From Chiloscyllium plagiosum (taxonomy: Eukaryota), in contig NC_057719.1 of the NCBI RefSeq assembly GCF_004010195.1, forward strand, positions 48,668,085-48,708,014: a stretch of DNA of 39,930 bases, read 5' to 3'. Positions 2,411-38,099 of the stretch are shown one piece after another. Made by a program: the position numbers and the translations under genes. Position 1 is the stretch's first letter. Each line of letters begins with the position of its first letter. Below the pieces are notes generated by a model. That model saw nothing but the letters and a program-made list of their open reading frames with translations, was not told the DNA's origin and ran no database searches.

Positions 2411-3547
2411 AATTCTGACAAGTCATTTTTACTGGTGTCATTGTATTATGTGTAATGAATATTTCAGCCCAGTATATGTAAATTAACAAAACAGAATCAA
2501 GCAATGAATGCCTCGATCTGTTTTATGCATAATTTGTAGGCTAAGATGAATGAAAATTCACATCTTATCTTAATGCTTGATTATGATCATTTTCACGTAT
2601 TCTTCATTGATACTTCTGTGATTCTGTTTTTATTATAATTAATGTACATTTATCTGATATTGATCCATCCTGCGAGTGCAATGCATATGCTGATGTCAGT
2701 GAATTCATATTCAGATGAATTTTTGTTCCATAAATACATCTGCTAGAATTATAAAGTCCCTGCACCTGTGTTTATATACAGCTCAATGCCACATCAGCAA
2801 ACTATCATCAGGACAAGCTAAACAGCAGTGTTTTAGCACAAGGTGCAATTAGTATGTCAGTAGATGACATGGGTCTCTTAATTGCGCTAAGTGTAATTCA
2901 GATGCATGTCAGATACAGAAGGGTTGTGTATACCCAATGCTTGTTAAGCTTGAAGCTTTGAAGGAACAGATCTTTCCTCAGCAGTGTTGAAGCCACTCAG
3001 TGGAAAGTATGTATTTTTCCATTTTCAAAAAGAAAATTGCATAGTATAAAGAAATATTCTCATGCAAAAATTGGGAACAAAGTTTTGGAGTCCAAATGTG
3101 GGCATTTGTAAACCAAATCAATCTATTTCCACAACTGTATTGAATAACCTTAGGTTGCACATGGTATTAGCAAGATCATAGTTGCTGTTTAATATAGCAA
3201 AGTGTAACTTTAACTGTTGTATAACATTTTTAAATTATCTTTCACTTCTGCTCCTGCTGGTGTCCCAAAGTTAATCATACTTTTAAGGCTCGTTCAGCAT
3301 CTTCACCCATAAAACTGGACAAAGCAGGTTAGGCACGTGGTCCATTCATTTGGTTCTGTCCATCCAGTGAGGTTACCATCACATATTAAACAGTAAATGG
3401 TACACTGTTACTTCCATGTCTCTTTCACCCTGTTTACTCTAAATAGTCTTAAGTTATATTCCACCTCTGTGTAGCTATGTTGCTGTGAAGAAACACCAGT
3501 GTTAACAGTGGTATAAATGGAATCTAATTGATAATTTTTAAGTGAAT

Positions 3548-4615: not shown

Positions 4616-5049
4616 TGACAGCACAGAGGGAGCTGTGAGGGAGTTGCCCTGGGAGTCCTCAACATTGACTCTGGATCCTATGAAGCTCATGACTTCAGGT
4701 TAAACATGGACAAGGAAACCTTTTGTTGATTACCATTTATGTCCCCCTGTGGCTGATGAACCAGTACTCCTCCATGTTGAACTGCACTTGGAGGAAGCGC
4801 TGAAGGTGGCAAGGACGCAAATGTGTTTAATGTCCACCGCCAAGAGTGGCTCAGCAACAGCACTACTGATGGAGCTGGTCGGGTACTAAAGGGCATAGCT
4901 GCTAGACTGGTTCTGCGGCAGCTGGTGAGGGTACCAACAAGAGGGAAAATATATTTGACCTCATCCTTACCAAGCTGCAGAACTATCTGTCCATGACAGG
5001 ATCAGTAAGAGTGGCCAGCATATGTCCTTGTGGAGATGAAGTCCTGAGT

Positions 5050-5200: not shown

Positions 5201-5350
5201 TTGTCTTGCTTGAGACTAATCTTTGAGAATAAACATTGAGAATAATCTCCACACTGCTAAATAGGATAGACTTTGAACAGAGTTTGTGAGAAGATTTGTA
5301 GCTCGGGTGCTTGTTGTTGTGGTTCTGTTCGCCGAGCTAGGAATTTGTGT

Positions 5351-5391
5351 TGCAGACTTTTCGTCCCCTGTCTAGGTGACATCCTCAGTGC
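5351..5391 (-). ncRNA. Minimal type I hammerhead ribozyme motif (inverted pLTR copy)
   Basis: Reverse complement reads gca-CTGAGGA-tgtcacctagacaggggac-GAAA-ag-TC-tgc; the stem III palindrome is mutated. Confidence 0.6.
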
Positions 5392-6174
5392 TTGGGAGCA
5401 TCCTGTGAAGCACTTCTGTGATCTTTCCTCCGGCATTTGTAGTGGTTTGAATCTGCCACTTCCGGTTGTCAGTTCCAGCTGTCCGCTGCAGTGGTCGGTA
5501 TATTGGGTCCAGGTCGATATGCTTATTGATTGAATCTGTGGATGAGTACCATGCCTCTAGGAATTCCCTGGCTGTTCTCTGTTTGGCTTGTCCTATAATA
5601 GTAGTGTTGTCCCAGTCGAATTCATGTGCACCAGAACTGCAAAAAGAGGAAGAACACCTCTACAATGTATTCGCCAAAAAAGGATCCCCACGCAATTTCA
5701 TCAACGATGCCTAAGGGAAAGACAACGGATTGAGGACATGCCGCAACCCAAAGGACTAGCCACACTACCATACATCAAGAGCATTTCCGAACTGACAGCC
5801 AGACTACTGCGACCACTAGGACTCATAACAGCACACAAACCAACAGCCACTCTCAGACAACAACTCACCAGAATGAAGGACCCAATACCGGATAGTTGGT
5901 CCAGCTATCCTTAGTAGCCACACACTCAGATGACAAGCAACATGAGTTCGACTGGGACAACACTACTATTATAGGACAAGCCAAACAGAGAACAGCCAGG
6001 GAATTCTAGAGGCATGGCACTCATCCACAGATTCAATGAATAAGCACATCGACCTGGACCCAATATACCGGCCACTGCAGCGGACAGCTGGAGCTGACAA
6101 CCGGAAGTGGCAGATTCAAACCACTACAAATGCCGGAGGAAACATCACAGAAGCGCTTCACAGGAGGCTCCCAA

Positions 6175-6214
6175 GCACTGAGGATGTCACCTAGACAGGG
6201 GACGAAACGTCTGC
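6175..6214 (+). ncRNA. Minimal type I hammerhead ribozyme motif
   Basis: gca-CTGAGGA-t-gtc(a)cct-agac-agg(g)gac-GAAA-cg-TC-tgc: intact CUGANGA/GAAA/UH core, stem II, short stem I and palindromic ACGT stem III, as described for PLE hammerheads. Confidence 0.75.
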
Positions 6215-6364
6215 AACACAAATTCCCAGCTCGGCGAACAGAACCACAACAGACTTTGAACAGATCTAGCAACTAAAGATTGGGCATCCATGATGCACGG
6301 TGAGCCATCAACAGCAGCAGAATTGTACATCAGCACAACCTGCAATCTCATGGCCTGGCATATC

Positions 6365-10905: not shown

Positions 10906-11223
10906 TTAGATTAGATTAGATTATTTACAGTGTGGAAACAGGCCCTTCGGCCCAACAAGTCCACACCGCCCCGCCGAAGCGCAACCCACCCGTACCCCTA
11001 CATTAACCCCTTACCTAACACTACGGGCAATTTAGTATAGCCAATTCACCTGGTCCTGCACATCTTTGGACTGTGGGAGGAAACCAGATCACCCGGAGGA
11101 AACCCACGCAGACACGGGGAGAATGTGCAAACTCCACACAGTCAGTCGCCTGAGGCGGGAATTGAACCCGGGTCTCTGGCGCTGTGAGGCAGCAGTGCTA
11201 ACCACTGTGCCACCGTGCCGCCC
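10906..11223 (-). mobile_element. HE1 SINE (tRNA-derived V-SINE), full length, young
   Basis: Minus strand: A box tggcacagtgg, B box ggttcaattcc, V-domain gtgtggagtttgcacattctccccgtgtctgcgtgggtttcctcc, HER1-like 3' end and (AATCT)n tail. CpGs retained. Confidence 0.95.
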
Positions 11224-13574: not shown

Positions 13575-14448
13575 TGTGATGATGCTGCTCCTTTAACAAA
13601 GTTGTGTTCGATTAGATTAGCTTACTTACAGTGTGGAAACAGGCCCGTTGGCCCAACAAGTCCATACCAATGCTCTGAAGAGCAACCCACCCAGTCCCAT
13701 TCCCCTACATTTATCTCTTCACCTAACACTACGGGCAATTTAGCATAGCCAATTCACCTAACCTACACATTTTTGGACTGTGGGAGGAAACCAGAGGAAA
13801 CCCGCGCAGACACGGGGAGAATGTACAAACTCCACACAGGCAGTTGCCCGAGGCAGGAAACTTTTTCTTCAGAGAGGTCATAAAGCAGAGGTTCTGATAT
13901 ATCCGGAAATGTCTATTAGATAAAGCTTTTAAGTGTTTTTTTTTAAAGAAACACTAGTTTAATGAAAGGGAAGTGGCCAGTTCTCCAGTTCAGGGTTTGA
14001 TTTGGTTTTGTTTTACCAAGCTGTTTCGTTTGCAGCTGCTGGTCACGTTTTAGCTAGAAACCAGAGAGGCTGCTGGGGACCCAAAGAAGCTGTTCCATGT
14101 CGATCCTCTCTCTCTGACATCTCTCCTATAAGAACCTGTGTTTGATTTTACCTTTTTTGCCAAGGGGGTGTTTATGGGGATGTTGCAAGTATTTGGAACA
14201 GCATCATTAAGTTGCGATAGAGTTGATTGGGTTTTCAGATCGGGTAAGTTATTATAAATTCAGTTCTCTCTTGTACATGTTTTGTTCCATAGTCTGTAAA
14301 TAAATTCTGTTTTGTTTAAAATGGAGTGGTTGGGCCAGCTGCATCACTCCTGGAATATTCATGTTACACCTGTTTAAAACAACCAGCAAAGTTAGGGTCT
14401 CAGCTACTTTCTTGAGGTGCTTGAGAGAGTCTGGCACCATCCATAACA
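13575..14448 (+). mobile_element. Solo LTR inserted in the CR1 tail repeat
   Basis: tgtgatga...ccataaca termini. Perfect TSD tcta at 13571-13574 and 14449-14452. AATAAA at about 14299. Confidence 0.85.
13611..13860 (-). mobile_element. HE1 SINE, 5'-truncated, nested in LTR
   Basis: Matches 10906-11160 and lacks the tRNA A-box end. Confidence 0.93.
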
Positions 14449-19899: not shown

Positions 19900-20442
19900 C
19901 AGAAACTGAACTGGATTGGCAACATAAATGCTATAGTTACAAAAATCGGCCAGATGTTGGGAATATTGCAGTGAGTAATTTACCTCCTTTCTCTCCAGTG
20001 CCTGTACACCAGCTACAATGTACAAGTCAGCAATATAATGGAATGGTCTCCACTTGTCTGGATGTGCGCAACTCAATCAATGCTACGAAATTCAACAACA
20101 TCCAGGACAAAGCCATCTGCTTGATTGGCACCACATTCACCACCTTCAATGTTCACTCCTTCCACCACCATTGTGTGTACCATCTACAAGGTGCACTGAA
20201 ACAACTCATGACATGTCATTCCACAGCACTTTCTAAACTCTTGACCTCAACCACCGAGAAGGCCAATGGGATGCAGATGCATGGAAACATTATCATCTGA
20301 AAGTAACCCTTTAAAACAAAACACTATCCTGACCTACAATTATGTCACTGTTCCTTCACTGTCACTGGTTTGAAATCTGGGAACTTCCTTCCTAACAGCT
20401 AGCCGAACCAGTGAAACCCACTTCCCATGAATGAATTCAAAA
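19900..20442 (+). mobile_element. 3' end of the SINE-headed CR1/L2-group LINE
   Basis: KFNNIQDKAICLIGT..NVHSFHH translation and tail cccacttcccatgaatgaatt. Confidence 0.8.
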
Positions 20443-20443
20443 A

Positions 20444-20677
20444 GGTCACATGTAGGCTAGACCTGGTAAGGACAACAGATTTTCTTGTCTACAGGACGTT
20501 AATGAACCAAATGATAGTTTTATGGTCACCATTGTTGTCTTTATATTTCCGATTTATTAACTAAATTCAAATTCCACTAAATACTAGGATAGGAGTTTTA
20601 CTCATGTCCCCAGAATTTTTGTCTGGGCCTCTCAATTACTCATTCAGTGACATTGTCACTCGACCATGGCTTCCCCC
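20444..20677 (-). mobile_element. tRNA-derived head plus Meta-like domain
   Basis: Reverse complement aligns with 28174-28410 (tggttcattaacgtcctgtagacaagaaaatctgttgtccttaccaggtctagcctacatgtgac). Confidence 0.75.
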
Positions 20678-23831: not shown

Positions 23832-23962
23832 TAGGTCAATCCACAGCAGATGGATAGCAGCAGTTCAAGAAGACAGCTCACCACCATCTTGTCAAGGGCA
23901 ACTGGGAAGGGGAAATTAATGCTGGCCAGCCAGCAAAGCCTACATCCCATGAATAAATAAAT
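23832..23962 (+). mobile_element. Short 3' tail of the SINE-headed LINE family (or its partner SINE)
   Basis: cagttcaagaagacagctcaccaccatcttgtcaagggcaact...atgctggccagccagcaaagcctacatcccatgaataaa. Confidence 0.8.
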
Positions 23963-27944: not shown

Positions 27945-28173
27945 GGGTCGAATTTTCTCATTTTCAGTTAAAGTGTTTTATCGAGAGAGATTTTTGTCAG
28001 TTGGTCCACCATAGCTTGGAGCGATTTTTATCTCACAATTTTCTGCTCTTCATCTCATTAATTCAGCAACAGCAGACAGGTTTTTGGGTGCCTTTCTCGG
28101 GGAATCACGGAGCTGCAATGGCAGAAGTGTTCACACCTTCTTGCTTTCACATCCCTAGCACTATACCTATTAA
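27945..28173. mobile_element. Possible PIF/Harbinger terminal fragment
   Basis: Begins gggtcgaattttc after tat, resembling the GGGCGGAATTTT termini of shark Harbinger elements. No partner TIR found. Confidence 0.35.
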
Positions 28174-28661
28174 GGGAAGGCAGTGGAGCAGTGGTATTGT
28201 CGCTGGACTAGCAATCTAGAGAGCTAGGTAATGTGCCACACACCAGGTTTGAATCCAACATGGCAGATGATGGGATTTGAATTGAATAAAAATCTGGAAT
28301 TAAAAATGAAATGATGACTGTGAAACCCAAAGTCATAAAAGCCCATCGGATTCACTGAGGTCTTTTATGAAGGAAAACTGCTGTCCTTATCTGATTTGGC
28401 CTACACGTGACTCCATATCTACAGCAATGCGATTGACTTGTAATGCCCTCTGAAATAGTCCAGCAAGCCATTCAATTGCACCAACTACTAAAAGGAAATA
28501 AATAAAATCAAACAGACCATTTGGCATTGACTAAGAAATTTGAATAGGCGATGGCAAATTCAGTCCTGCCAACCCTGCAAAGTCCTATTTGCCAACATCT
28601 GGGGATTAGTGCCAAAACTAAGAGACCTCTCCTGCAATAGCCTGACAAACTCATACTCACG
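28174..28661 (+). mobile_element. 5' end of a LINE: tRNA-derived Pol III head + Meta-like domain + start of AP endonuclease
   Basis: A box tggagcagtgg 28184-28194, B box ggtttgaatcc 28246-28256, conserved domain 28337-28478, then VLFANIWGLVPKL..(frameshift)PDKLILT, matching APE motifs I and II. Confidence 0.75.
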
Positions 28662-31131
28662 GGATGGTGAGAAAAGAGATAAATCTAAGGCTGGTATAGT
28701 TGAGAAGAGGAACAAACCAAGTAGTCAAGGCAGGCAAGAGTAAGGCATTAAACTGAATTTATTTCAATGCAAGAGGCCTGACAGGTAAGGCAGATGAACT
28801 CAGGGCATGTTTGGGAACATGGGAATGGGATATCACAGCTATTATAGAAACATTGCTCAGGGAAGGTCTAGACTGGCAGCTTAATGTTCTGAGTATAGAT
28901 GCCAAAGAATGGATAGAAAGAGGGGTATGAAAGAGGGGTAAGTGACATCTTTGGTTAGGGATGAAAGTACAGCTGTACTTAGGGAGGATATTCCTGGGAG
29001 TACATTTAGTGAAGCTATTTGGGTGGATGATCACTCTATTGGGATTGTACTTTAAGGACCTCCCCCCCCACCAAATAGTCAGCGGGAAGTTGAGAGAAAA
29101 AGAATCTCAGATATCAGTAAGAATAAAAGAGTTCTAATGGGGGTTTTAATTTTCCAAACATAAACTGTGACTGCCATAGTGTTAAGGGCTTAGATGGAGA
29201 GAAATTTGTTGAGTGTGTACAAGAAAATTTTCTTATTCCGTATGTGGATGAACATTGCAGAAAATGAGCAAAACTTGACCTTCTCTTGGAAAATAAGGCA
29301 GGGCAAGTGGTTGAGGTGTCAGTGGTGGAGCACTTTGGGGAAAGTGATCATAATTCTATTAGTTCTAAAATAGTTATGGAAAAGGATATACCCAATCTAA
29401 AAGTTAAAGTTATAAACTTGAGTAAGGCCAATTTTGATAGTTTTAGGTAAGAACTTTCAAAGTTGATTGGGAGAAACTATTTGCAGGTAAAGGGATGGTT
29501 GGAAAGTGGGAGGCCTTCAAAAATGAGATAACTAAAGTCCAGAGACAGTATGTCTTAAAATGCATAAAGGTGGATAAATCCCCAGGACCTGATCAGGTGT
29601 GTCCCAGAACTTTGTGGGAAGCTAGGGAAGTACTTGCCAGGCTCCTTGCTGAAATATTTGTATCATCGGTAGCCACGAGTGATATGCTGGAAGACTGAAG
29701 GTTGGCTAATGTGGTGCCATTATTTAAGAAAGGTGGTAAGGAAAAGACCCAGAACCAAAGACCAATGATGCTGATGTCAGTGGTGGGTAAGTTATTGGAG
29801 GGGATTCTGAGTGACAGGATTTATATCTATTTAGAAAGGCAACAACAGATTAGGAATAGGTAACATTGTTTTGTGCATGGGAAATCATGTTTCACTAACT
29901 TGATTGAGGTTTTTGAACAAGTGACAAAGAAGATTGATGAAGGTAAAGCAGTGAATGTTGTCTGTATGGACTTCAGCAAGGCTTTTGACAAGGTCTCGCA
30001 TGGTAGACTGGTTAACAAGATTAGATCACATGGAATCCAGGAAGAGCTAGCCATTTGGGTACAAAATTGACTTGAAGGTACGAGACAGAGGGTAGTGGGG
30101 GTGGGCTGTTTTTCAGACTGGAGGCCTATGACCAGTACTGTGCCACAAAGATCAGTATTGGATCCATTGCTTTCCGTCATTTATATAAATGATTTGGATG
30201 TGAATGTAGGAGGAATAGTTAGTGAGTTTTCTGATGACACCAAAATTGGTATAGTGGATAATAAAGAAGATTATCTCATGGTACAACAGGACCTTGATCA
30301 GATGGGAAGATGGGCTGAGGAGTGGCAAATGGAGTTTAATTTAGATAAAATGAGATGTTGCATTTTTGTAAGGCAAAGCAGGGCGAGGTTTCTACTCTTA
30401 ATGGTAGGGTCTTGTGGAGTGTTGCTGAACAATGAGACATTGGAGTGCAAGTTCATAACTCCTCGAAAAGGAATTTGCAGGCAGACAGAGTAGTAAAGAA
30501 GGCATTTGGTACACTTGCCTTTATTGAGCAGTACATTAAGTATAGGAGTTGAGATGTCATGTTATGGCTTTATAGGATATTGGTTAGGCCACTTTTGGAA
30601 TGCTGCATTCAGTTCTGGTCTCCCAGTTATAGGAAATATGTTGTTAAACTTGAAAGGATTCAGGAAAGACTTATAAGGCTGTTGACGTGGTTGGAGGGCT
30701 TGAACTAGAGGAAGAGGCTGGGATTATTTTCTCTGGAGCATTGGAGGCTCAGGGGTGACGTTAAAGAAGTTTATAAAATCATGGTGGTCATGGATAAGGT
30801 GAATAGCCAAGGTCTTTATCCCAGGGTATGGGGAGTCCAAATCTAGAGGGCATAGGTTTAAGCTGAGAGGGGAAACATTTAAAAGGGACCTAAGGGGCAA
30901 CTTTTTCACACAGAGGGTGGGGAATGTATGAAATGAGCTGCCATTGGAAATAGTGGATGCAGACAATTCCAATATTTAAAAGGTATCTGGATGGGTATAT
31001 GAATACAAAGGGTTTAGAGGTACATGGGCCAAATGCTGGCAAATGGGACTAGGTCATATTGGGATGTCTAGTTGGCACGGCCAAGTTAGACTGAAGGATC
31101 TGTTTCTGTGCTGTATGACTCTATGGCTCTT
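28662..31131 (+). mobile_element. HER1/CR1 LINE ORF2 region with internal deletion at about 29551
   Basis: YFNARGLTGKADELRA APE start at about 28760, KSPGPDQVCPRTLWEAR, MDFSKAFDKV, FSDDTK, tail tatgactctatggctct. Confidence 0.95.
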
Positions 31132-32554: not shown

Positions 32555-34297
32555 TCACACTTGTCTGGTATTGTCATCAATTAGGATCATAGCACTGCAT
32601 CCCTAAACAAGCTGTTCCAGTATATAGAACATAGAACATAGAAGAATACAGCGCAGTACAGGCCCTTTGGCCCTCGATGTTGCTCAGTCTTTCCTCATAC
32701 GATTTTCCTTTCATACCAGGCAACATCCTGGTAAACCTCCTCTGCACCCGTTCCAGTGCCTCCACATCCTTCCTATAGTATGGCGACCAAAACTGCACAC
32801 AATATTCCAGATGCGGCCGCACCAGAGTCTTATACAACTGCAACATGACCTCAGGGCTCCGGAACTCAATTCCTCTACCAATAAAAGCCAGTACGCCATA
32901 TGCCTTCCTCACCGCACTATTTACCTGGGTGGCAACTTTCAGAGATCTGTGTACATGGACACCAAGATCCCTCTGCTCATCGAACTGTACAACACTGACA
33001 TGTAACCAGCAATATGGAAAACTATAACATTAATTGCTAAAAGCAGGATAAATCCAATTTGGCCAATGGCCACTCTATCAGTCCACACTTGACCATGTAA
33101 AGTGATGGAAGGGATTGTTGACCGTGCTGTCAAGCAGCACTTTCTCAACAAAAATCTGCTCACTGTGTTCTGACAGGGCCACTCAGCTCCTGACCTCATT
33201 ACAACCTTGGTCCAAATATGGACAAAAGGGCTGAGATCATGAGATGAGGCGAGGTCACGTGCACTCAGCATCAAGACTGCATTTGTCTGAAGGCTGTGGT
33301 TCTTGGAAGTATATGAACTCAGTCCCCGAACATCTCTGTTGGAATTCTTCAGCGTAGTATCCTATGCCCACTATTTCAGCTTCTTCTTCACTGATCTTCC
33401 CTCCATCTGCAGGTCAGAAGTGAGGAATTTGGCTGATAACTGCACAACAATTAATACTAGTTGTGATTTCTCAGATAATGAGCAGCCTGTGGCCATGTAC
33501 AGGAAGACCTGGTCAAAATCCAGGTTTGAATAGAAAGTGTCAAGTAACATTCATGCCACTCAGGTACCAGGCAATGACCATCTCCAATAAGAGAGAATCT
33601 AACCATCTTTTGTTTCATATTCCAAGGTATTACCAACATTGAAATCCCCAATTATCAACATCCTGGAGGTTACCATTGTCCAGAAACTGAAGAGAATCAG
33701 CCAGATAAATAAACGTGAGCAGGTCAGAAGCTAGGAATCACGTAGTGGGTAACTCAGATCCTGTCTCTGAGTGCCAGTCCACTATCTAGAAGGCACATGT
33801 CAAATATCTTCTATTTGCATGGATGGATGCAGCTCCAACAACTCTAAAGAAGCTCAACACCATCCAAGATGAAGCATTCCATCTGACAAGCTCCCCATCC
33901 ACCACTTTCAACATTCACTCTCTCCACAATTGAGACAAAGTGGCTGCAGTATGCGTCATTTCAAAGGTCACTGCAGTAATGCATTCAGGCTCCTCCCACA
34001 GCACCTTCCAAACGTGCAATCGGTATCATCTTGAAAGGTAAAGACAACAAATCCATGGGAATGCCACCACCTGCAAGTTCCCCTCCAATCTAGAAATCAT
34101 TGAAGCCTTATTGCTGCTTTTTCACCATTGATGGTTCAAACTTCTGAAAATCCCACATAGAATCAGTTTGGATGCTCCTATTCGAGGGACTGCAATGGTT
34201 CAAGAAGGCAACTAATCACTACCTTCTCAAGGTCAATTAGAAATAGGCAATAAATACTGGCTTAGCCAACAGTACCCACATCTTATGAATGAATAAT
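32555..34297 (+). mobile_element. RT-to-3'-end portion of the SINE-headed CR1/L2-group LINE, interrupted at 32624-32981
   Basis: Decayed RT motifs (ALSIKTAFV for ALDIKAAFD, LADNC for FADDC), AWMDAAPTTLKKLNTIQD, tail ggcaataaatactggcttagccaacagtacccacatcttatgaatgaat. Confidence 0.8.
32624..32981 (-). mobile_element. Young CR1 3' fragment with internal deletion
   Basis: ORF 32577-32912 (LYKTLVRPHLEYCVQFWSPYYRKDVEALERVQRRF..SYEERL) is joined directly to the terminal 60 bp and (TTCTATG)n tail. Confidence 0.92.
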
Positions 34298-34704: not shown

Positions 34705-35016
34705 GGGGTGTCATGGTGGCACAGTGGTTAGCACTGCTGCATCATAGTACCAGAGACCTGGGTTCAATTCCTGCCTCAGGCAACTGACTGTGTGGAGTTT
34801 GCACATTCTCCCTGTGTCTGCGTGGGTTTCCTCCAGGTGCTCTGGTTTCCTCCCACAGTCCAAAAATGTGCAGGTTAGGTGAATTGGCCATGCTAAAATT
34901 GCCCGTAGTGTTAGGTGAAGGGGTAAATGTAGGGGAGTGGGTCTGGGTGGGTTGCGGGTTGGTGTGGACTTGTTGGGCCGAAGGGCCTGTTTCCACACTG
35001 TAAGTAATCTAATCTA
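34705..35016 (+). mobile_element. HE1 SINE, full length
   Basis: A box tggcacagtgg, B box ggttcaattcc, V-domain and taagtaatctaatcta tail. Confidence 0.95.
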
Positions 35017-37454: not shown

Positions 37455-38099
37455 TTCTAATATACAAGGCATTAAGTTCAAGACCCTTCCAGGATCTGAG
37501 CACAGAAATCAAGACTGACACTCCAATGTAGCACTGAGGGATTGTTGCACTATCAGAAATGTTGTCTTTTGGGTGAGATAGAAATCAAGGTCTTCATAGA
37601 ATCCCTACAGTGTGCTAACAGGCAGTAGAGGTCAACAGACCCTCCGAAAAGTATCCCACCCAAACCCACTCCTCATTACTCTACATTTACACCTGATTAA
37701 TGCACCTAGCCTATACATCCCTGAACACTATGGGCAATTTAGCATGACCAATTCACCTAACCTGCACATCTTTGGATTGTGGGAGGAAACTGGAGCATCT
37801 GAAGGAAACCCACACAGACACGGGGAGAATGTGCGAACTCCACATAGACTGTCACTCAAAGCTGGAATTGAACTCGGGTCCCTGGCACTGTGAGCCACCA
37901 TGCCGCCCCAAAGATCAACCAGTTATCTGCCCATTTGATTTACCCCATGTCTCCATTTCTTTAAGAAGTGCAAGGGTTATCCCTGGTGTCGAGCCATTGA
38001 GGATAACTAATGTCACCAAAATGGATGAGCTGTTTATTACTACATTGCTGTCATAGCAGTTTTCTGTGTACAAATTCTTTGTATACTGTTGTATATTAC
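37455..38099 (+). mobile_element. SacSINE1-like DeuSINE, split by an HE1 SINE and truncated by CR1
   Basis: B-box-like agttcaagacc and Deu-domain ctgacactccaatgtagcactgaggggattgttgcactatcagaaatgttgtcttttgggtgagat. Resumes at about 37925-38075. Confidence 0.7.
37594..37908 (-). mobile_element. HE1 SINE, older subfamily (GATTCTAT tail)
   Basis: V-domain and tRNA head in reverse, with small internal deletions. Confidence 0.92.

Follow-up and report, generated by a model that had tools for sequence, protein, structure and literature searches.

A tRNA-derived head at the 5′ end of an elasmobranch Zenon LINE and its possible role as an internal Pol III promoter

Positions 28174–28661 (+) of the 39,930-nucleotide stretch of Chiloscyllium plagiosum DNA analyzed here (the window) are the old, dead 5′ end of an elasmobranch Zenon LINE, and it is nearly certain that in this structure a tRNA-derived head is joined to the Zenon endonuclease ORF. 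In the usual working division LINEs are autonomous coding elements transcribed by Pol II, and SINEs are non-coding and transcribed by Pol III; that division is broken by a vertebrate LINE family that is abundant and has, in sharks and a ray, a tRNA promoter at its head. Sequence comparisons place the element in elasmobranch Zenon, a family of the CR1 group about 3.3 kb long with one APE-RT frame. The family and its missing ORF1 are already published (Stuart et al. 2026, PMC13343379), and the tRNA head is apparently unremarked there, the words ‘tRNA’ and ‘promoter’ being absent from the main text. The best explanation as a whole, to which we give a probability of about 0.5, is that the head is an internal type-2 promoter and that the element would be read by Pol III.

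Anatomy of the head-to-endonuclease junction

The element opens with a tRNA-derived head (28174–28262, +) that includes a long variable-arm region and whose 5′ end is marked by the sequence, the contig depth and the starts of the published consensuses. Within it are the A box of a type-2 Pol III promoter (TGGAGCAGTGG, 28184–28194, +), an anticodon-arm-like hairpin (CTGGA, a 7-nt loop and TCYAG; 28203–28219, +) that pairs in paralogues, and a B box (GGTTTGAATCC, 28246–28256, +) that is also seen in the loose-end consensus of paralogues from three organisms. The conserved body (28262–28483, +) corresponds to the LINE 5′ UTR; it matches CarCar_Zenon-1 by eye, has two further copies in the window, and contains an AATAAA (28285–28290, +) that is covered by reads of RNA run X21 and present, by eye, in six of the seven elasmobranch consensuses. 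A spacer of ~95 nt (28484–28578, +), with an A-rich stretch and a decayed AUG after which the frame is Arg-rich in the consensuses, leads to APE endonuclease motif I (KVLFANIWGL, 28579–28608, +), which is recognized from paralogous depth and from its DNA match to HypSab_Zenon-1 and SquAca_Zenon-3. APE motif II (PDKLILT, 28641–28661, +), identified by translation, is the last part of the element, and a CR1 LINE piece (28662–31130, +; depth step at 28658 and CR1 comparison) interrupts the Zenon copy and lies outside it. The sequence-only reading had named the two boxes, a conserved domain, a spacer and both APE motifs, and all are found in the sequence.

The B box has one mismatch to GGTTCRANTCC, and the paralogous contigs read GGTTC(A/G)AATCC. 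Alone it is at chance level in a scan of the window (4 matches against 3.68 expected). The paired A-B pattern, which was picked after the locus had been inspected, has three matches in the window, two of them at the 28174 head, against 0.45 expected, and none of 100 shuffles reaches three. By eye, the A and B boxes are retained in all seven elasmobranch consensuses over their first 400 letters, with the A box form TGG-NNN-AGTGG kept in 7/7 and the letters of the B box varying. The T at 28217 is C in most paralogous depth, by which pairing of the hairpin is regained. We presume the parent tRNA to have been Leu or Thr: the CTGGA/TCCAG stem, long variable region and T-arm are what we take to fit a class II tRNA-Leu, and the hairpin loop presumably carries AGT (Thr). 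ARAGORN reports no tRNA in the head, and Rfam gives nothing at gathering score and a single chance snoRNA match (E 4.3). The fold of the decayed head is no better than that of shuffles (z 1.11), and likewise that of the body (z −1.09).

Motifs I and II are in different frames and are separated by 47 nt here and 60 nt in a related protein (P0039), which indicates a frameshifting deletion in this copy. The endonuclease is recognized from agreement of the DNA with the published consensuses (28573–28598 matches HypSab_Zenon-1 at 22 of 26 letters, counted by eye) and not from protein-level tests; Pfam finds no family in any of the seven decayed frames, and BLASTP against P0039 left motif I unaligned. 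As had been claimed, neither a SINE tail nor a target site duplication separates head from endonuclease: there is no A-tail or microsatellite tail between body and endonuclease, and the direct repeats within 28100–28760 are short, with none flanking the head. Set against the definition of a SINE2, the copy has the tRNA-derived head with its A and B boxes, and it is not a short non-coding unit with its own tail and target site duplication, since it enters an endonuclease frame. Contigs of three organisms contain this locus together with its CR1 piece, and show 1, 8 and 12 differences; we note that the orthologous contigs of organisms B and C have four extra letters in the A-rich spacer at 28494–28495.

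The central domain had also been likened to the core of MetaSINEs, with SlmI as the example, and here the sequence-only reading is not upheld. MetaSINEs are defined by a 66-bp Meta domain directly 3′ of the tRNA head (Nishihara et al. 2016, PMC4824008). A motif taken from BivaMD-SINE1 has 0 matches at 3 mismatches, and by eye the body does not resemble the bivalve BivaMeta-SINE1 or BivaMD-SINE1 of the supplement to that paper, the bivalve Meta sequences being those compared; we therefore rejected its identification as a Meta domain. The word SlmI does not occur in PMC4824008; a table in PMC3747384 assigns this SINE a head from tRNA-Leu and a tail from RSg-1, the description on which it is compared with Zenon here.

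The elasmobranch Zenon family

Zenon LINEs of five elasmobranchs, a coelacanth and hagfish have been described as lacking ORF1 and ending in a poly(A) tail, and a published tree puts these consensuses in Zenon (PMC13343379). Over the first 400 of about 3,300 letters of each, the head opens all seven elasmobranch consensuses (CarCar_Zenon-1, RhiTyp_Zenon-1, ScyCan_Zenon-1, HypSab_Zenon-1 and SquAca_Zenon-1/2/3; 2,886–3,314 letters) and none of the other three (two hagfish, one coelacanth); from the name codes, the species are white shark, whale shark, catshark, Atlantic stingray and spiny dogfish (three consensuses). By eye the window is colinear with these consensuses from position 1 to motif I. 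Counted by eye, it matches CarCar_Zenon-1 at 41 of 44 letters (28262–28305) and 50 of 60 letters (28370–28429). Motif I DNA is visible in two of the seven within the first 400 letters, and lies about 405–420 nt from the 5′ end both in the window and in HypSab_Zenon-1. This agrees with two claims made for the locus beforehand, that it is a single-ORF LINE starting with a tRNA-derived head and that it has no ORF1. The published elements and the window copy belong to the same family, with a DNA match through head, body, spacer and motif I, a single ORF and an A-rich 3′ end; no structural difference is seen, and the main text of PMC13343379 is silent on the head, the scarcity of T-runs and the start codon.

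The junction is not unique to this locus, the case that the sequence-only reading had set as its refutation, as it is present in all seven elasmobranch consensuses and in paralogous contigs. When such contigs were aligned at 80% identity, with joint sides of 21–29 nt, six of the 15 joints listed (with 30 more beyond the list) link the APE start with the head or the body. In run X1 the contig depth climbs from 13.8 in the flank to 500–880 at 28175–28220, and the paralogous depth at motif I is 1,500–2,000. Summed depth in X1 is ~30-fold greater on the body than on the APE start, and it also drops ~15-fold within the body, where the window copy is more decayed; the excess of head over APE was rejected as proof or as a copy count because it is confounded by this decay. 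Where legible, Table S3 of PMC13343379 gives 59 to 2,313 copies per consensus. Intact ORFs among near-full-length copies number 3/612, 1/1,419 and 1/294, with none in three other consensuses (one of them 0/2,313), so the family may be largely inactive.

A HMMER search with the window RT frame (32991–33530, stops as X) found 38 proteins, of which 37 are fragments of this RT. The best preserved of these fragments (P0003) matches eight longer proteins, including P0039 (1,054 aa, APE and RT, 42%), none of which is a full-length shark ORF. Two of the eight are gene models, from Mobula birostris and Scyliorhinus torazame, in which pieces of the RT are present, and on sequence these matches point to sharks and rays. 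Five ray or shark gene models (P0042, P0043, P0016, P0013 and P0038) contain pieces of Zenon RT, e.g. a cystathionine beta-synthase-like isoform, by exonization or mis-prediction. In a FastTree tree of 15 RT sequences (two of eight loci omitted as too short), P0003 groups with P0039–41 and the metagenome loci L001 and L003 (support 0.99), apart from the CR1 of the window. The RT phylogeny that had been proposed as a check therefore separates the window RT from CR1, its nearest sequences being those five; no named Zenon protein is among the sequences in the tree.

Other searches were less productive. A word-based protein search with the decayed RT frame retained 0 of 148 candidates, DNA motif scans found nothing in viral contigs, metagenome contigs or prokaryote genomes, and an RT search of viral contigs found none. 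Twenty-nine metagenome loci are distant LINEs, the closest of which, L001 and L003, are matched only from beyond the APE. ARAGORN gave no tRNA in any of 18 metagenome loci scanned, which carries little weight since it misses the 28174 head too. One metagenome LINE (L002, 1–140) has the sequence CGDVERNPGP, which we take to be a 2A-like peptide, directly before endonuclease motif I.

Transcription and translation of the element

On the reading we prefer, the original LINE 5′ end was swapped in a shark/ray ancestor for a tRNA-derived head, probably by template switching, and the new arrangement would then have been fixed as the family form. The head may have come from an earlier SINE, or SINE-like copies may instead have sprung from the LINE. 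TFIIIC would bind the A and B boxes and Pol III would start just upstream, so that each full-length insertion would carry its promoter with it. The polymerase would traverse a coding strand in which T4 terminators would have been kept scarce, and the element’s own APE-RT would copy the RNA from its 3′ tail, as is established for the group. In the step we consider weakest, an uncapped RNA without an in-frame AUG would be translated from a non-standard start (a non-AUG codon, frameshift or read-through), perhaps aided by the body. Internal deletions would give rise to head-plus-tail copies with SINE anatomy, one of which is seen in the window. We put the odds that Pol III transcribes the full element at about even. 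Rather more tentative, and somewhat short of even odds, is the proposal in its entirety: Zenon would be an autonomous coding retrotransposon made end to end by Pol III from a captured tRNA promoter, with a 3.3-kb coding strand purged of terminators, a body-assisted, AUG-less start of the APE-RT, deletion copies that are ready-made SINEs, and a ‘SINE body’ that is the LINE 5′ UTR.

Pol III terminates at runs of four or more T. The Zenon pieces of the window contain four such runs (T4+) on the sense strand in 4,228 bp against 12.4 expected (P 0.006), whereas the CR1 pieces have 36 in 6,530 bp against 26.7 expected; the two rates differ with P 4e-5 for all pieces and 0.016 for non-overlapping ones. 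A4+ runs are not depleted in the Zenon pieces (26 against 29.5 expected). Three of the four Zenon T4+ runs are missing from other copies (position 28363 is C in most paralogous depth, and the sites at 33608 and about 34118 differ in overlapping copies), and the fourth is without a second copy. Over the first 400 letters, TTTT is found by eye in none of the seven headed consensuses and in all three headless ones. With non-overlapping Zenon pieces the comparison with base composition gives 4 against 6.8 (P 0.19), and dinucleotide-preserving shuffles give 5 against 8.6 (P 0.108, one piece drawn wider). The closest metagenome relatives, L001 and L003, are not T4-depleted (O/E 1.10 and 2.01), and two of nine metagenome LINE loci are likewise below expectation (L008 0.76 and L010 0.62). 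The terminator check proposed beforehand thus has a divided outcome: T4+ runs are scarce relative to CR1 and to base composition, and not significantly so relative to dinucleotide shuffles.

RNA run X21 is poly(A)-primed and single-cell, and 132 reads from ~2% of the run were aligned. None of the 132 has ≥95% identity to the locus, depth is zero from 28474 on with no read over the spacer or the APE start, and no transcript of the full Zenon element is seen in this ~2% of the run. Thirty-four of the reads switch to poly(A) at 28300–28303 plus a few letters, in the element sense and past the AATAAA; they fall in two loose-end groups (28300 and 28303), stem from other copies, and may derive from few loci or from priming at genomic A-runs. 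This suggests that a Pol II transcript running in from upstream is cleaved after the AATAAA of the head, and it speaks against full-length RNA being supplied by host read-through. The scarcity of T-runs and this polyadenylation would both fit transcription by Pol III. As a separate matter, the heads of other copies appear to act as polyadenylation sites, and thousands of head copies with such a site may shape host mRNA 3′ ends.

The alternative that survives best, which we nonetheless consider unlikely, is that the head belongs to the family and that Pol II makes the full-length RNA, starting either at a promoter inside the head or body or in host genes as read-through, with the tRNA part a relic or a factor-binding site. 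LINEs are as a rule Pol II transcripts, and Kojima notes that the requirements of a LINE and of a Pol III promoter may conflict (PMC5786205). A capped RNA would be translatable by ordinary means, 39% of the whale shark Zenon-like copies reported in 10.1101/443036 are intronic so that read-through is available, and stricter nulls leave the T4 deficit weak. Harder to reconcile with a Pol II transcript are the persistence of both boxes in consensuses from sharks and a ray (over their first 400 letters), the scarcity of T4+ runs relative to CR1 of the same genome, and a sense AATAAA ~110 nt into the element that is apparently used for polyadenylation. If the head is a relic, the finding amounts to a detail in the annotation of a family described recently.

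The start of translation bears on a further alternative. In HypSab_Zenon-1 the AUG nearest to motif I is, by eye, 92 nt 5′ of the motif I Asn codon and out of frame; at the same 92-nt offset the window has ATA (28502–28504), also out of frame. From this AUG onward the visible parts of the consensuses of five species stay in register by eye, and the APE frame beyond it is open, Arg-rich and without an AUG. Farther upstream, three of the five species have (by eye) an AUG GCC UAG CAA whose phase is that of the APE frame. With no in-frame AUG ahead of motif I, translation would have to begin at a non-AUG codon or by way of a frameshift or read-through, unless one error is common to the consensuses. 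In P0039 motif I is preceded by 116 residues that begin at an AUG and are missing from the shark element, which fits replacement of an ancestral 5′ end. It is conceivable, although improbable, that labor is divided, with Pol III making the full-length RNA that is copied, and infrequent capped Pol II transcripts of genic copies supplying the protein in trans. This would explain the scarcity of T-runs and the kept boxes without translation of an uncapped RNA, and the 3′ tail recognition of the group permits action in trans, at least as described for lepidopteran Zenon (PMC6740152); however, with a weak cis preference, selection would hardly keep the ORF linked to the head, and the missing in-frame AUG remains unexplained.

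Still less probable is that the tRNA-like head is a processing signal that excises the element RNA from a host transcript, in the manner of the 5′ ribozymes of R2, RTE and Ingi LINEs. Self-cleaving 5′ ends are reported in six LINE clades (PMC5786205) and the 5′ boundary of the element is sharp, but the head has no Rfam match, its T-arm is just partly paired by eye in the first 400 letters of the consensuses, and the scarcity of T4+ runs would be left unexplained. The reading of the junction as a SINE that happens to abut a truncated LINE, or as an artefact of how the consensuses were extended, is already largely refuted. Even though the extension was automatic and followed by curation (PMC13343379) and heads seem far commoner than APE starts in a summed depth confounded by identity differences, the same junction and spacing occur in a genomic copy, in separately built consensuses of five species and in the paralogous contigs of three organisms, and the legible part of Table S3 lists hundreds to thousands of copies for each consensus.

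If Pol III does make the Zenon RNA, as in the reading we prefer, then this RNA would be a natural example of a messenger several kilobases long made by that polymerase, and would offer a system in which to test translation that uses neither a cap nor an in-frame AUG.

Related elements and other repeats in the window

The nearest published counterparts share parts of this organization. Lepidopteran Zenon (Wang et al. 2019, PMC6740152) is likewise of the Zenon clade, ~3.3 kb in length and with a single ORF, and has head-plus-tail deletion copies; one of them, Persaeus, is described there as carrying the Zenon 5′ end without tRNA homology or a Pol III promoter. Unlike Persaeus, a deletion copy of shark Zenon would at once have the anatomy of a SINE. 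Bov-tA and SINE2-1_ACar (PMC4494074; PMC5786205) similarly consist, as described, of a tRNA head joined to LINE 5′ and 3′ parts, but in elements of the Bov-tA type the head was added once the coding part had been lost, whereas in shark Zenon it is on a coding element. RTE-1_DAn and elements related to it are LINEs of another clade with tRNA-like sequence, and are mentioned in one sentence without position or function (PMC5786205). A tRNA head on Zenon is unreported in the literature searched, to which subscription journals and Repbase entries mostly did not belong, and it is not described in the parts consulted of PMC4494074, PMC11481361, PMC5499810, PMC10294476, PMC13295347, PMC6036668, PMC3531059 or 10.1101/443036. 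Kojima proposed that conserved SINE bodies derive from LINE 5′ ends and found no LINE matching a conserved body (PMC5786205), and the Zenon head and body bear on that origin.

Several further Zenon pieces are present in the window, and most of those assigned to the family beforehand are confirmed. An APE fragment at 4616–5047 (+) is a separate copy (tblastn with P0022 at 4631–4726, E 0.001, and with P0039 at 4826–4942, E 0.003). Another separate copy has RT and 3′ end at 32982–34297 (+), from its RT frame and from protein and repeat comparisons; the segment 32620–32981, which had been included with it, is an antisense CR1 piece with a few more Zenon codons ahead of it. The other assignments that stand are a 3′ part with tail at 19900–20442 (+; repeat and protein comparisons), the piece at 665–2254 and a 3′ tail fragment at 23832–23962 (+; repeat comparison). 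The possibility that the head copy and 32982–34297 form one insertion was rejected, as there is no Zenon sequence between them and no target site duplication. The (GAAT)n tail proposed for the family does not describe the four decayed 3′ ends, which have just one or two GAAT units followed by short A-rich sequence.

Two copies include parts of the head or body. One is a second head with part of the body at 20445–20675 (−), recognized by alignment to the head copy (20675–20445; 151 of 246 columns identical, score 91, null maximum 39) and cut by the tail of the 19900–20442 copy. The plus-strand Zenon tail adjoins the minus-strand head mid-body at 20442–20445, and the remainder of this head copy is not seen on the far side of the 19900–20442 piece. 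The other is an internally deleted copy at 665–2431 (−), with body (2431–2267), 13 bp, the C-terminal part of the RT (2254–2020), another insertion and the 3′ end (1250–665). It was identified by alignments and by tblastn with P0003 from 2254; 109 of the 188 body columns match, with a score of 52 that exceeds the null maximum (46 of 200), and the RT part matches in 157 of 221. It bears out the suggestion that internal deletion can occur, as one case and not a family.

Two other repeats are of note. A Penelope-like element lies within the Zenon APE piece (5285–5627 and 5940–6251) and has a 313-bp inverted copy that is 96% identical; a frame in the element resembles what we take to be a GIY-YIG endonuclease. 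A repeat of ~300 bp is present in four copies (10906–11223, 13607–13859, 34706–35016 and 37724–37900) that are 82–89% identical, two of which contain a perfect B box (11158–11168 and 34761–34771), and this is probably a separate tRNA SINE family.
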